NCBI GenBank assembly: GCA_001304105.1
Contig: LJUR01000006.1
Coordinates: 1-60,017, forward strand
From: Deltaproteobacteria bacterium SM23_61
GTDB taxonomy: Bacteria; Desulfobacterota; SM23-61
Direction of reading: 5' to 3'
Length of the DNA stretch: 60,017 nucleotides
Both the position numbers and the translations under genes were made by a program. Each line of letters starts with the position of its first letter. The stretch's first letter is position 1. This document shows, in pieces, positions 14,875-18,355 of the stretch. The notes below the pieces were generated by a model. That model saw only the letters and a program-made list of their open reading frames with translations, had not been told where the DNA came from and did not search any database.

Positions 14875-16632
14875 TCAGGTGGAGCCGCCTTCCTCCAATT
14901 TCGCCATCTCCCGGATCTTTTGGGCGTAGGTCTTCTGCAAAGAATCCAGGTAATTCGTATCCAGGGGACCTTTCCAGGTGACCACCTGCTTGAACCGCTC
15001 GGGGATCTTCGCGGAAGTAGGGTCAAACCCCGTTGTCATCCGGATTTGCCAGCGCATTTTCTGGACCCTCCGGGCGACGGAGTCCAGATTTTCCGCCAGA
15101 TTCTGGTAGCCCACGGCGTTCAGGCAATCGGCCAATACGGCTTCTTTGTACACTTCCCGGGCGAAGAGGCAGGAGACCATGGAAGTAAGAAACACGCGGG
15201 CCTTCTCATCCTGAACCAGAAATTCCACAGCCTTTGCCACATCTTTTGCTTTTTCCTTCTGATCATACGAGTACCCTCCGGCATCGAGATGGGAATGCCG
15301 GAGTCCTAGCGCCTGGGAAATGAAGAATACCTCCCCGGTCGCATATCCCCCCATCTCTTGGCCAAGGACACAGGCGAAGTCCTGACCGCCGTATTGTTGC
15401 GCTGCTTTATGGGTCCCCTGCCCGAGCAAGCGGTAAAAATCGTTGGCACCAGTACCCAGGTGTTTCACTGCTTGGGCATAGGTCCCGGCATCGCCGAATC
15501 TCAGGGGGATCAGCGTTTCTTTTTCGGAAAGGAGATCCTTTTCAAAGGCCTCCGTAGCCCAGGCCAGGGCCACTCCAGCGGACATCACATCCAGTCCTAC
15601 TTTTTCAGCGATTTCCAGGAGCGTCAGAACTTGGAAGGCATCCAACACGCCCAGCATGGAGCCCATGGCAAAGATAGGTTCGTGGTCGTAGGAAACCTGC
15701 CGGTAGAGATATTGATTCGGTTCACTGAACTTTTCGCGCACGAACCCAAGGTGGATGCACCCCACCGGACATCCAGCACAGGCTGTATTGCGCAGCAGGG
15801 TGCGATCGGCAAAAGTCTCGCCCGTGATGCCGGAAATGGCCGGGTCGCTGGTGTTCTGGAGGTTCCGGCATGGCAACGCCTGAATACCGTTCAGCACGGC
15901 CACGTTGATGGGTGTACCCAGGTTGTGATACTTGTCCATCATGTTTGTTTCGGTGAGTTGCCCGTAAATTTTCTGGAAGAGCGGCGCATACTCCTTGCTC
16001 GCGGGCAGATCGAAGGACTCGTCTCCCACAATTACGCTGGCTTTGAGGTTTTTGGCACCCATGACTGCGCCGCTCCCCAGGCGGCCGAAATGGCGATACG
16101 TATCGACATTAATGCAGGCCATGGCCGACCGGTTCTCGCCTGCCGGTCCGATCCGAAGAATGCTCCTGTGGCCGGACCCACCGACCATCCGACGAAGCAT
16201 CTGACCGGTCCTCTGGACGCTTTTTCCCCAAAGATAATGGACGTCTTTCAGTTCCAATTTTCTGGATCCAACGATCAAACAACTCGGGCGCTTCGCCTTC
16301 CCGGTGATCACCAGGGCGTCCAGGTCGGCAAACCGTAGGGCCAGAGCCGCGCGACCCCCTCCGTGGCTCTCGGCATACTGATCGTGGTAAGGTGATTTGA
16401 AGGCACAGACGACTTTGCTCATCAGCGGGAAATATCCCGTGAGGGGGCCGATGGCGAAGATCAACGGCTGCTCCGGATCTTCCCATGACTTGTCCGGTCG
16501 GGCGTATTTTTCGAACAGAAAAGCAGCGAGACCGCTCCCTCCGGCGTAAAGATCGCGGCCGTCGATCTCTTCGATTTGGCCCCGGCCCGTGGAAAGGTCA
16601 ACCTTGAGTACTCGGAAATGATCACGGATCAT
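14875..16632 (-). CDS. aor: Aldehyde:ferredoxin oxidoreductase-family (tungsto/molybdopterin) enzyme
   Basis: 585 aa. The AOR N-terminal domain (GGSGLAAFLF, IGPLTG) and [4Fe-4S] ligand motif CAGCPVGC are present. The start overlaps the ferredoxin stop (ATGA). Confidence 0.9.
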   Translation of the reverse strand: MIRDHFRVLKVDLSTGRGQIEEIDGRDLYAGGSGLAAFLFEKYARPDKSWEDPEQPLIFAIGPLTGYFPLMSKVVCAFKSPYHDQYAESHGGGRAALALRFADLDALVITGKAKRPSCLIVGSRKLELKDVHYLWGKSVQRTGQMLRRMVGGSGHRSILRIGPAGENRSAMACINVDTYRHFGRLGSGAVMGAKNLKASVIVGDESFDLPASKEYAPLFQKIYGQLTETNMMDKYHNLGTPINVAVLNGIQALPCRNLQNTSDPAISGITGETFADRTLLRNTACAGCPVGCIHLGFVREKFSEPNQYLYRQVSYDHEPIFAMGSMLGVLDAFQVLTLLEIAEKVGLDVMSAGVALAWATEAFEKDLLSEKETLIPLRFGDAGTYAQAVKHLGTGANDFYRLLGQGTHKAAQQYGGQDFACVLGQEMGGYATGEVFFISQALGLRHSHLDAGGYSYDQKEKAKDVAKAVEFLVQDEKARVFLTSMVSCLFAREVYKEAVLADCLNAVGYQNLAENLDSVARRVQKMRWQIRMTTGFDPTSAKIPERFKQVVTWKGPLDTNYLDSLQKTYAQKIREMAKLEEGGST

Positions 16633-17072
16633 GGCCCCGCCTCTTTTCGGCCTTCATCGGCTATCGGGGGGACTGGGACTTCGGTCATCTCCAGACAATC
16701 ATGGGGACAGAATTCCACGCAACGGCCGCAGTGGATGCAGACGAAGGGTTCGCCGCATGGGTCCAGGTAGATGGCGTCGACCGGGCAAGCCTGGGCACAG
16801 GCCCCGCAACGAATGCACAGCTTCTTCTTAACCACCACGCCGCCCCCCCGGCGCTGGGTGAAGGCACCCGTGGGGCAAGCGAGGGCGCAAGGCGCGGGAT
16901 CGCAGGCCAGGCAAGGCTTGGCCTCGAAGCCAGTGGACAGACCGCCCGTCGACCGGATCCGGATCCCCGCTGTGTCCCAGGAAAGTTGCTTGTGCACCAG
17001 GCGGGCGCAGGCCAGGGAACAGGAGTGACAACCGATACACCGCTCCATGCGCGGCGTGCTCAAAATCTTCAT
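16629..17072 (-). CDS. Poly-ferredoxin-like 4Fe-4S electron-transfer subunit
   Basis: 147 aa with [53 protein letters not shown] overlaps on both sides (eno upstream, AOR downstream). Confidence 0.85.
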
Positions 17073-18355
17073 TGTTTAAATGCCTTCCTTCCTGCAAATT
17101 TAGCCGAAGTTCCCAACTCCTCCTCGATGCGCAATAACTGATTGTACTTTGCGACCCGATCCGTACGGCTCGCTGATCCTGTCTTGATCTGCCCGGCTCC
17201 AGTGGCCACCACAAGATCCGCAATGAAGGTGTCCTCGGTTTCTCCAGAGCGGTGAGAGACGATGGAAGTGTAGCCCGCCTCTGAGGCCATCCGCATGGCC
17301 TCGAGGGTCTCGGTTAAAGTCCCGATCTGGTTGACCTTGATGAGAATAGAATTGGCGATTCCTTCCCGGATGCCCTTTGAAAGTCTTTCCGTATTGGTCA
17401 CGAAGAGATCATCACCCACAAGCTGGATCTTCTTCCCAACCGTGTCGGTCAAAAGCTTCCAGCCCTTCCAGTCATCCTCGGCCATCCCGTCCTCGATCGA
17501 GAGGATCGGATATTGCTTCACCCAGTTCGACCAGAATTCGACCATTTTCTCTGCATTCCGCTCACTCTTGTCAGACTTCTTGAAGATGTACTTGCTCTTC
17601 CCTTGATCGAAGAATTCACTCGAAGCCGGGTCTAAGGCCATGCCAATGTCCGTCCCTGGACGGTAGCCAGCCTGCCCAATGGCCTCCAGAATCACCTCCG
17701 GAGCCTCTTCATTTGATTTCAGGTTTGGTGCAAATCCGCCTTCGTCGCCCACTGCGGTGGAATAGCCTCTCTTCTTCAATACATTTTTCAAGGTATGGAA
17801 GACCTCGGCACCCATGCGAAGGGCATCGGCAAAACGGCTAGCCCCGTAGGGGACAATCATGAATTCCTGGAAGTCGACCGAGTTATCGGCATGGACGCCG
17901 CCATTCAAAATATTCATCATAGGCACTGGCAACACCGAAGCAGAGGGGCCTCCGAGGTAGCGATAAAGAGGGATCTTCTGGGACACGGCGGCAGCCCGTG
18001 CCACAGCCATCGAGACAGCGAGAATCGCGTTGGCTCCCAATCGGCCTTTATTCGGCGTTCCGTCAAGGTTGATCATCTTCTGGTCGATCTCCTTCTGGAG
18101 GGTTGCCTCCATGCCTTGGATCGCTGCAGCGATTTCTCCGCTCACATGCTTCGCCGCATTACGAGTCCCCTTACCGAGGTACCGCGATTTTTCGCCGTCG
18201 CGGAGCTCAACCGCCTCGTGCTCGCCCGTTGAAGCGCCTGAAGGTACGGCAGCTCTCCCCATGCTCCCGTCGTCCAACAAGACATCTGCCTCCACGGTGG
18301 GGTTTCCTCTTGAATCAAGAATCTCTCTTCCAATGGTCTTTAGAATCTTAGCCAT
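17069..18355 (-). CDS. eno: Enolase
   Basis: 428 aa. [42 protein letters not shown]. Confidence 0.97.

Follow-up and report, generated by a model that had tools for sequence, protein, structure and literature searches.

An oxidoreductase of the AOR/WOR family and a ferredoxin-like partner subunit are encoded as a pair on the minus strand of the window, the whole stretch of 60,017 nucleotides analyzed here, within what its gene content describes as a large glycogen-to-acetate/lactate fermentation cluster. The best reading of the combined data, to which we assign a probability of about 45%, is that the pair is a GOR-like enzyme that would oxidize glyceraldehyde-3-phosphate (GAP) with reduction of ferredoxin, in parallel with GAPDH. 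The bacterial precedent is the GOR (formerly XOR) of Caldicellulosiruptor bescii, which was reportedly described by Scott et al. in 2015 and 2019 as a bacterial glyceraldehyde-3-phosphate:ferredoxin oxidoreductase. Recent reviews of glycolysis present GAP oxidation with ferredoxin as an essentially archaeal trait, naming “some bacterial species” and citing a single enzyme (PMC12525153). It is tentatively proposed here that GOR-like, tungsten-type GAP oxidation may be built into the glycogen-fermentation “survival” islands of widespread and probably mesophilic Desulfobacterota and Nitrospirota, beyond the thermophilic cellulolytic Firmicutes.

Two subunits encoded by overlapping genes

The catalytic subunit WorL (585 amino acids; positions 14875 to 16632, minus strand) matched the Pfam families AFOR_N with 202.7 bits (E 7e-60) and AFOR_C with 170.5 bits (E 8e-50) and is predicted to contain a pyranopterin-bound tungsten or molybdenum plus one [4Fe-4S] cluster. 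Its partner WorS (147 amino acids; 16629 to 17072, minus strand) matched several Fer4 families. Four cysteine motifs, CxxCxxCxxxC at residues 12 to 22, CxxCx4CxxxCP at 54 to 67, and CxxCxxCxxxCP at 86 to 97 and again at 112 to 123, predict four [4Fe-4S] clusters in WorS, which also produced full-length matches to the Fe-S subunit of WOR5, 6x1o_B (4 to 130), and to 9mqx_E (9 to 144). The enolase gene eno follows upstream (428 amino acids; 17069 to 18355, minus strand; TIGR01060, 691 bits).

As stated in the original prediction, these three minus-strand open reading frames are joined by two ATGA overlaps, and coordinates and sequence agree: the stop codon TGA of eno overlaps the start codon ATG of WorS at 17069 to 17072 (AAACAATGAAG), and the WorS stop overlaps the WorL start at 16629 to 16632 (GGGCCATGATCC). 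The N-termini of both proteins are conserved in relatives, with the ferredoxin beginning with MKIL(S/T) and the AOR with MIRDHFRVL. Both start codons are thus backed, and the overlaps are genuine and not an artefact of start choice.

The importance of the two overlaps was evaluated with a comparison set of 56 related loci (854 kb). In nearly all of them, the AOR gene was preceded by a gene for a WorS homologue, and the 4-nt overlap between the two genes was present in most related loci, being found as a gap of −4 in most of those with an unambiguous start. No second case of the overlap between eno and the ferredoxin gene occurred among the 56 loci. The gene directly upstream of the ferredoxin was instead gpmA, ackA, gap, ldh, glgP, malQ, pyk, glk, pfk, pgm, or eno, the latter separated by a 56-nt gap in locus L035, and gpmA or ldh occupied this position in close relatives with AORs 84 to 89% identical to that of the window. 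Moreover, 4-nt overlaps are routine here, with at least three further examples between adjacent minus-strand open reading frames of the window (26202 to 26205, 37280 to 37283, and 40401 to 40404). Since the overlap with eno is confined to this window, nothing specific about enolase follows from it, and it represents a local accident of gene order or operon packing. Of the single translational unit proposed for all three genes, the conserved coupling of ferredoxin and AOR persisted but the inclusion of eno did not. A dedicated unit of eno, ferredoxin, and AOR, in which the coupling would mirror a specific partnership, metabolic or physical, could cite the overlap at 17069 to 17072 and the upstream eno of L035; it is contradicted by the comparative data and must be considered highly improbable.

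A consensus scan found no terminator-like site on the coding strand between eno and the AOR gene. Folding of the spacer between the AOR gene and pta was no better than that of shuffled sequence (z = −0.74), and neither Rfam families, including the Moco riboswitch, nor tRNAs were found in the window.

The classes of WOR enzymes are set apart by their partners: an FAD subunit in Class III, bifurcating subunits in Class IV, and a Tat signal or membrane partner in Class V. No gene for a third subunit exists at the locus, where the pair is flanked by eno and pta and not by FAD, bifurcating, or membrane partners, and WorS possesses no Tat signal or twin-arginine motif and no transmembrane segment. 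Judged by these features, the pair is assigned to the predicted cytoplasmic enzymes of Class II, which consist of WorL plus WorS and are ferredoxin-linked (PMC13328260).

The catalytic residues of WorL are conserved. Cys285, Cys288, Cys292, and Cys488 align with C288, C291, C295, and C494 of PfAOR and are invariant across the subfamily, and the second-shell residues T240, E318, Y430, and H448 align with T243, E313, Y427, and H448. The GOR clade retains this T/E/Y/H pattern, whereas GAPOR has lost it (PMC12096430). The pterin-binding DxxGL(C/D) motifs deviate from PfAOR in the entire subfamily: the first reads E343-K-V-G-L-D, with Glu in place of Asp338, and the second has Thr483 in place of Asp489. 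An Asp instead of Lys450 and an insertion ahead of the catalytic Glu also distinguish the subfamily from PfAOR. The AlphaFold model of WorL (pLDDT 84.6) superimposed on 1aor with a TM score of 0.88.

A separate subfamily and its Clostridial sister clade

Phylogenetic analysis placed WorL, as the original prediction had suggested should be determined, outside the PfAOR-like enzymes and in a subfamily of its own with a bootstrap support of 100/100. Within this subfamily, the protein belongs to clade A (100/100), composed of Desulfobacterota, Nitrospirota, and some Bacillota, which is sister to a Clostridial clade (97/100). HMMER scores were above 300 bits within the subfamily and fell to about 210 bits outside. 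WorL was 40 to 44% identical to the Clostridial clade and 26 to 30% identical to generic AORs including PfAOR, which was placed in the outgroup of the tree; together with the monophyly of the subfamily, this led to the rejection of an identity as AOR sensu stricto. In metagenomes, proteins 80 to 100% identical to WorL formed more than 120 clusters (at 90% identity). The clade is uncharacterized but environmentally abundant.

The Clostridial clade provides the likely connection to GOR. Its loci show the order Fd-AOR-ThiS/MoaD-ThiF/MoeB, a three-gene tungstate ABC transporter, and moeA-moeA-moaA-moaC. This matches the layout published for C. bescii, with Athe_0820 (ferredoxin), Athe_0821 (XOR, now GOR), and Athe_0824 (three-gene tungsten transport) (PMC6391272). 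The Clostridial clade may consequently be tied to C. bescii GOR by synteny and literature, not by a direct alignment with Athe_0821. Caldicellulosiruptor was absent from the best 120 matches of the subfamily profile search, which returned Clostridia, Methanosarcinaceae, and Treponema, and the supplements of PMC13328260 contain this genus as one tree-node label without a gene-context row.

Clades A and B have 44 signature positions in common, which are seldom seen in the remaining AORs. Thirteen fixed differences separate clade A from the Clostridial side, and some of them adjoin catalytic motifs: after the catalytic Tyr, clade A has GYAT whereas the Clostridial clade has GYHT, the residue ahead of the first cluster Cys is Asn282 rather than Lys, and Asp263 stands where the Clostridial side has Phe. 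Loss of His and Lys and gain of Asp could indicate a different, non-phosphorylated substrate. Clade A may have diverged from GOR toward a new substrate that is tied to sugar breakdown but is not GAP, for instance, glyceraldehyde without a phosphate group, glycolaldehyde, methylglyoxal-derived lactaldehyde, or a further small acid/aldehyde pair. WOR5 proved to act on sulfonates and not on aldehydes, and in just 5 of the 92 WOR clades has the physiological role of any member been defined (PMC13328260). On the other hand, divergence of the sequence is the sole positive evidence for such a substrate, and no neighboring gene indicates one, with no mgsA and no non-phosphorylative aldolase noticed. 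A new substrate is consequently considered unlikely.

Gene neighborhood and the candidate reaction

The island genes named here are all located on the minus strand. Upstream of eno are genes for an alpha-D-glucose-1,6-bisphosphate-dependent phosphoglucomutase (18403 to 20061; TIGR01132, 929 bits), the 2,3-BPG-dependent phosphoglycerate mutase GpmA (20121 to 20867; NF010713, 429 bits), a type I phosphorylating GAPDH (20917 to 21978; TIGR01534, 428 bits with a cut-off of 367), L-lactate dehydrogenase (22780 to 23784; TIGR01771, 353 bits), a GH65 disaccharide phosphorylase plus a beta-phosphoglucomutase-family hydrolase (23845 to 27083), pyruvate kinase (27151 to 28602; TIGR01064, 516 bits), and phosphofructokinase, a ROK glucokinase, class II FBP aldolase, and glycogen phosphorylase (42714 to 49037). 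Downstream of WorL follow the long form of phosphate acetyltransferase (12598 to 14736; NF004167, 879 bits), acetate kinase (11177 to 12406; TIGR00016, 464 bits), and glucose-6-phosphate isomerase (9464 to 11125; NF001211, 873 bits). The set glgP, pgm, glk, pgi, pfk, fba, gap, gpmA, eno, pyk, ldh, pta, and ackA is thereby represented. A FixL-like histidine kinase (C-terminal match, 170 bits) and a FixJ-like response regulator (NF006900, 222 bits with a cut-off of 255) flank the island at 6636 to 9205 and are a possible regulatory pair. Genes for tungstate transport or pterin biosynthesis were not seen in the 60-kb window.

The original prediction had used an island with gpmA and eno but no pgk as an argument for a bypass of PGK. 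The absence itself was confirmed for the window, with no PF00162 match among the scanned open reading frames and a negative tblastn search with two PGKs. As evidence it is weak and was dropped: tpi, the product of which catalyzes a step that cannot be bypassed, is likewise absent from the window and everywhere in the related loci, and the island of a relative with an AOR 89% identical to WorL (locus L062) contains pgk. With GAPDH in the same gene string and pgk in the island of this close relative, a bypass is not needed.

More informative is the neighborhood across genomes, which was counted for 48 genome loci, taking in same-strand genes up to 8 kb away. Genes for glycogen metabolism, glycolysis, or fermentation were located beside the pair in 27 of these loci from several phyla, while 21 had no glycolytic neighbor. 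Most frequent were pyk (11 loci) and fba (10), followed by glgP, eno, gpmA, and pfk (8 each), the debranching enzyme (7), and gap (5). Loci with such neighbors came from Desulfobacterota, Nitrospirota, Bacillota (Dethiobacter, with glgC and glgP), and Chloroflexota (pfk-pyk-Fd-AOR-fba), and holders of the loci include relatives of the benzene degrader ORM2 and of manganese-oxidizing Nitrospirota. Pairing and neighbors thus recur in relatives, in agreement with the earlier view of a true pair in a sugar-fermentation context. The gene most commonly found immediately upstream was gpmA, and GpmA uses 3-phosphoglycerate.

The neighborhood also contains the material for a second reading, an aldehyde:ferredoxin oxidoreductase of general or acetaldehyde type that would cooperate with Pta and AckA. 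This enzyme may reduce acetate to acetaldehyde with reduced ferredoxin derived from PFOR, a route to ethanol that would keep the ATP from acetate kinase, or it may oxidize acetaldehyde to acetate in reverse. Adjacency to pta or ackA was found in eight loci, with pta directly downstream in five and ackA directly upstream in three from Nitrospirota, and PFOR adjoins ackA in locus L001. Every catalytic residue of the broad-range AORs is retained, and the His and Lys of the Clostridial GOR-like clade are missing in clade A. AORs of Desulfovibrio have been linked genetically to the use of ethanol and choline, with Dde_2460 of D. alaskensis tied to ethanol oxidation (PMC4215793). DVU1179 is a second such AOR associated with an ethanol phenotype. 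The best 120 matches of a search with a homologue from a Desulfovibrio sp. included Desulfonatronum, Desulfocurvibacter, Oceanidesulfovibrio, and D. subterraneus but not D. vulgaris, D. alaskensis, or D. gigas. The neighborhood lends some support to this proposal, also made in the original prediction, but a tblastn search with E. coli AdhE, YqhD, and AdhP found no Fe- or Zn-dependent alcohol dehydrogenase and no acetaldehyde dehydrogenase within 8 to 10 kb of any of the 56 loci (854 kb), although the same search was sensitive enough to pick up PGK at 44% identity. Open reading frames of 357 to 382 amino acids upstream of several loci, which had been candidates for alcohol dehydrogenases, were glucokinase, a Na/Ca exchanger, glgC-like proteins, a peptidase, and others. 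Glycogen genes and those of upper and lower glycolysis are far more common neighbors than pta-ackA, and the identity to the characterized broad-range AORs is low, at 26 to 30%. An acetaldehyde-type function is rather doubtful but deserves consideration before any new substrate.

For the GOR-like enzyme, we infer substrate, metal, electron acceptor, and co-regulation as follows. The two overlapping genes would yield one cytoplasmic Class II tungsten-type oxidoreductase, in which WorL, by analogy with solved AOR-family enzymes, should contain the bis-pyranopterin metal center together with a single [4Fe-4S] cluster. A soluble ferredoxin may receive the electrons of WorL through the four clusters of WorS, so that GAP, water, and oxidized ferredoxin would be converted to 3-phosphoglycerate and reduced ferredoxin. 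This reaction would run in parallel with the NAD-dependent GAPDH of the island and a PGK encoded elsewhere, as GOR operates in parallel with GAPDH in C. bescii (PMC8269263; PMC13328260). Electrons of the fermentation would be transferred to ferredoxin rather than to NADH, with the loss of one ATP for each triose, and the pair would be a fixed module of the island.

If this is true, glycolysis may proceed independently of NADH, and the reduced ferredoxin could serve hydrogen production or respiration. Confirmation would change how ATP and redox are accounted for when sulfate reducers and Nitrospirota ferment glycogen, a metabolism that would then be tungsten-dependent. If acetaldehyde is the substrate instead, the AOR route to ethanol, often assumed without evidence in metagenome studies, would gain support. 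The comparative data give the clade a specific, testable role and identify the first substrates to try.

Comparison with named systems

AORs sensu stricto, such as PfAOR (1aor) and the enzyme of C. autoethanogenum (9g7j), share with WorL the fold (TM 0.86 to 0.88), the cluster ligands, and the catalytic residues, but they are only 23 to 26% identical in structural alignments and need no WorS. The best partial matches in NCBIfam were to the Class V system YdhV/YdhY of E. coli, PRK09849 and PRK09898. A YdhV-type identity was rejected, as PRK09849 reached 121 bits versus a cut-off of 868 in the N-terminal domain only, and the Ydh system is associated with a membrane or the periplasm and uses extra subunits and Tat- or membrane-linked partners, none of which are encoded at the window locus.

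WOR5/ASOR of Pyrococcus furiosus (6x1o, 6x6u), the other characterized Class II WOR, is likewise a heterodimer of WorL and WorS, and its WorS is the full-length match mentioned above (E 5e-14). Its WorL is about 22% identical to that of the window (TM 0.78 to 0.79), belongs to a different clade, and uses aliphatic sulfonates.

Archaeal GAPOR (P. furiosus, NF040818) is from the same superfamily and, should the GOR-like reading hold, would share its reaction with the window enzyme. It is a monomer of about 650 amino acids without WorS and without the conserved Tyr/His region, whereas the window protein has 585 residues and a WorS. The latter aligned with NF040818 over residues 5 to 122 only and scored 28.4 bits with GAPOR_Arch versus a cut-off of 1300, which disagrees with the kinship to archaeal GAPOR raised as one possible reading at the outset. 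Conversion of GAP to 3-phosphoglycerate has nevertheless remained the best-supported role; the enzyme type had to be exchanged, with C. bescii GOR, a WorL/WorS enzyme, as the precedent.

This GOR, like the window pair, combines an AOR-type WorL with a four-cluster WorS encoded just upstream, possesses all four second-shell catalytic residues, and coexists with a classical GAPDH. It belongs to WOR clade 20 in Class II. The window protein belongs to the sister clade of the Clostridial proteins with the C. bescii-like locus layout, within one well-supported subfamily. The host of the window is probably mesophilic, unlike C. bescii, and the genomic setting differs: the GOR-like Clostridial locus is a cluster for tungstate uptake and pterin biosynthesis, whereas the window locus is an island for glycolysis and glycogen use.

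The worS-worL pair within a glycolytic gene string

The three minus-strand open reading frames were found at exactly the coordinates assigned to them in the original prediction: eno (17069-18355; enolase, TIGR01060, 691 bits), the gene for the 147-aa ferredoxin WorS (16629-17072; multiple Fer4 matches) and that for the 585-aa AOR-family protein WorL (14875-16632; AFOR_N and AFOR_C domains). Both ATGA stop/start overlaps could be read directly in the sequence. In relatives from several orders, the ferredoxin as well as the AOR (MIRDHFRVL) has a conserved N-terminus, which indicates that both starts, and hence the overlaps, are correctly called. 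Overlaps of 4 nt are nothing special in this window, with at least three more between other adjacent same-strand ORFs. That between eno and worS occurs, among 56 loci, only in the window, so that the coupling loses its proposed functional message about enolase, and a dedicated partnership between enolase and WorLS is essentially excluded.

The trio is embedded in a very long same-strand gene string. First in transcription order are a glycogen phosphorylase, a class II aldolase, a ROK glucokinase and an ATP-PFK (49037-42714, minus strand), then a V/A-type ATPase operon (33368-42637, minus strand; subunits A and B, a protein resembling the I subunit, and small subunits) and, between this operon and pyk, an RND efflux system on the same strand (28630-34713; outer-membrane factor, AcrB-like pump and membrane-fusion protein). 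The ATPase may serve ion/pH homeostasis while fermenting. After the RND system follow pyruvate kinase, a beta-phosphoglucomutase-family hydrolase, a GH65 phosphorylase, L-LDH and, between ldh and gap within the glycolytic string, a two-pore-type K+ channel gene (Ion_trans_2, 22059-22745). The GH65 disaccharide phosphorylase (trehalose/maltose/kojibiose type) and the hydrolase (23845-27083, minus strand) overlap each other by 4 nt, and this pair suggests that compatible-solute disaccharides, besides glycogen, may feed the island. Next in order are type I GAPDH, gpmA, phosphoglucomutase, eno, the ferredoxin, the AOR, pta, ackA and pgi. Directly downstream of pgi, a two-component pair is encoded, a histidine kinase similar to FixL and a LuxR-type response regulator similar to FixJ (6636-9205; FixJ with 222 bits at a cut-off of 255), accompanied by a lone receiver domain (5050-5454). 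The 138-nt spacer between the AOR gene and pta (14737-14874) contains a 30-nt stretch repeated imperfectly in direct orientation (87% identity, 73 nt apart) plus 18-nt inverted repeats. At z = -0.74, its predicted fold did not exceed that of shuffled sequence in stability. The motif had no second copy elsewhere in the window.

All Embden-Meyerhof steps are encoded in the window except triose-phosphate isomerase and phosphoglycerate kinase, and neither tpi nor pgk was found anywhere in these 60 kb. The missing pgk had been used as an argument for a GAPOR-like bypass; the absence is real, but the argument is weak because tpi is equally absent, from the window and from all related loci, and the step of triose-phosphate isomerase cannot be bypassed. 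Moreover, GAPDH is encoded four genes upstream in the same string, and a related locus with an 89% identical AOR (L062) does contain PGK, in the order ldh-AI2E-PGK-pgm-debranching-eno-gpmA-Fd-AOR-pta-ackA-PPK2-pgi-malQ-glk. This indicates that the islands are not self-contained PGK-free pathways.

Subunit features and subfamily

WorS contains four complete Cys motifs, which predict four [4Fe-4S] clusters, has no twin-arginine signal and matches, over its entire length, the Fe-S subunits of solved AOR-type pairs, WOR5 (6x1o_B/6x6u_B) and 9mqx_E. WorL retains all four Cys residues that hold the [4Fe-4S] cluster in AOR and the second-shell Thr/Glu/Tyr/His of aldehyde-oxidising members (T240, E318, Y430 and H448). 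Its AlphaFold model (pLDDT 84.6) was superposed on the Pyrococcus furiosus AOR (PfAOR, 1aor) with a TM of 0.88 and is at roughly equal distance to every solved family member (19-27% identity). A subfamily-specific insertion at residues about 295-314 (DNA about 15690-15750), directly before the catalytic Glu318 and not present in PfAOR, is predicted with low confidence to form a beta-hairpin (pLDDT 53-69 for residues 270-320), and Asp338, Lys450 and Asp489 of PfAOR are changed to Glu, Asp and Thr/Asn in the subfamily. Judged by sequence, WorL and WorS form a Class II tungsten-type oxidoreductase, predicted to use ferredoxin, in the scheme of Putumbaka et al. 2026 (PMC13328260). Three other assignments were ruled out: archaeal GAPOR (28 bits at a cut-off of 1300, N-terminal residues only), YdhV (121 bits at a cut-off of 868) and classical AOR, the window protein being outside that group in the tree.

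An exhaustive HMMER search of 50%-identity representatives gave 300-760 bits inside the subfamily and about 210 for generic AORs, a drop that points to a bounded subfamily. Neighbour-joining with 100 bootstraps separated this well-supported subfamily from the generic AORs (100/100), with a Desulfobacterota/Nitrospirota clade that includes the window protein (clade A, 100/100) and, on the opposite side, a Clostridial clade (97/100). Metagenomes contributed more than 120 protein clusters (90% identity) at 80-100% identity to the window AOR, and a survey of species-representative genomes 47 loci. Identities to the window protein were 81-89% in Thermodesulfobacteriota MAGs including the benzene-degrader ORM2a, the complete genome of which is CP113000.1, about 70% in Syntrophobacterales and Desulforhabdus, 63-74% in Nitrospirota including a manganese-oxidiser MAG, about 66% in Desulfobulbaceae, 57-60% in Desulfovibrionales, about 53% in Dethiobacter and other Bacillota, and 41-43% in Anaerolineae, Eisenbacteria and Fermentibacteria. 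Carriers that can be cultivated include Desulforhabdus sp. TSK, Desulfovibrio sp. 7SRBS1 and Desulfocurvibacter africanus. The same pair, about 40% identical, is also present in Methanosarcinaceae archaea, so the subfamily crosses domains; on a Methanosarcinaceae-like contig, it adjoins PIN-domain genes and MtrA/MtrH-like methyltransferase genes.

Conserved neighbourhood and candidate metabolic role

The WorS-WorL unit is constant and its surroundings are shuffled, even between close relatives: four loci with AORs 84-89% identical (L001, L002, L061 and L062) share the island genes in widely differing arrangements, with the Fd-AOR pair intact in all and with PFOR and a rubrerythrin-like gene added in L001 or PGK, PPK2, malQ and glucokinase in L062. 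Of the 48 genome loci, 27 have one or more genes of glycogen metabolism, glycolysis or fermentation no further than 8 kb away, almost invariably on the same strand (pyk in 11, fba in 10, glgP, eno, gpmA and pfk in 8 each, the debranching enzyme and ackA in 7 each, pta in 6 and gap in 5). As a rough, uncomputed estimate, such a gene should turn up in about 5% of random 16-kb windows from a 3-5 Mb genome. The association is cross-phylum, with malQ and the debranching enzyme upstream in Desulfovibrio, glgC-type genes and glgP flanking the pair on both sides in Dethiobacter, and the orders pyk-glk-Fd-AOR in a Syntrophobacterales MAG and pfk-pyk-Fd-AOR-fba in Anaerolineae. The commonest immediate upstream gene is gpmA (5 loci), the product of which uses 3-phosphoglycerate, and the commonest immediate downstream gene is pta (5 loci).

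Adjacency to pta/ackA in eight loci agrees with the main alternative, an acetaldehyde/acetate AOR cooperating with pta-ackA, as does the genetics of ethanol metabolism in Desulfovibrio (PMC4215793); this alternative is rather unlikely. Across 854 kb of sequence from 56 loci, neither an alcohol dehydrogenase nor an acetaldehyde dehydrogenase turned up in the neighbourhood; a PGK at 44% identity was picked up by this search, an indication of adequate sensitivity. Oxidation of glyceraldehyde-3-phosphate survives as an idea on grounds other than the missing pgk, namely the cross-phylum glycolytic neighbourhood and the probable subfamily kinship with GOR, Caldicellulosiruptor bescii's glyceraldehyde-3-phosphate:ferredoxin oxidoreductase (formerly XOR). 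The enzyme would be of the GOR type and not of the GAPOR type, acting alongside GAPDH as in C. bescii; the original observation was correct and its interpretation partly right.

The data show which genes are present and how they pair, along with the cluster ligands, the catalytic residues, the subfamily and the genes nearby. The metabolic role is inferred: part of the triose flux from glycogen or disaccharide breakdown would be oxidised by WorLS straight to 3-phosphoglycerate. Electrons would pass from the pterin metal site via the WorL cluster and the four WorS clusters to ferredoxin, and carbon would proceed via gpmA, eno and pyk to LDH or to PFOR-pta-ackA; PFOR adjoins ackA in L001. Delivery of electrons to ferredoxin instead of NADH would allow acetate instead of lactate as end product, at the price of one ATP per triose. 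The FixL/FixJ-like pair is, as a speculation, a candidate regulator that may place the island under oxygen/redox control.

Comparison with the GOR of C. bescii

GOR is a WorL/WorS enzyme that works in parallel to GAPDH, using ferredoxin to oxidise glyceraldehyde-3-phosphate to 3-phosphoglycerate (PMC13328260, PMC12096430, PMC8269263). In its locus, the ferredoxin gene Athe_0820 is followed by that for XOR and, from Athe_0824 on, by a three-gene tungstate transporter, which adjoins pyranopterin-biosynthesis genes (PMC6391272). Members of the Clostridial clade, such as Pseudobacteroides cellulosolvens, Caldicoprobacter and others, display the layout Fd, AOR, ThiS/MoaD, ThiF/MoeB, three ABC-transporter genes, moeA, moeA, moaA, moaC. 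Because this resembles the published locus, the Clostridial clade is probably the GOR clade, by inference from layout and literature and not from an aligned C. bescii sequence.

The window protein belongs to the sister clade of this presumed GOR clade, at 40-44% identity. Both clades have 44 signature positions in common that are rare in other AORs, among them R94, R156, R160, H181, K234, H236, R281 and H446, but clade A differs from the Clostridial side by 13 fixed differences, some beside catalytic motifs (GYAT, with the clade A-specific A431, instead of GYHT, Asn282 instead of Lys, Asp263 instead of Phe and Tyr-His 82-83 instead of Leu-Thr). This means that the substrate is not simply transferable from GOR. 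A new substrate specificity of clade A, to which these differences are the sole pointer, is improbable. The cross-phylum link to glycogen fermentation gives the finding its value and makes a concrete biochemical test worthwhile for a pair that is, by its sequence relationships, a member, within an uncharacterised sister clade, of an already known kind of enzyme.
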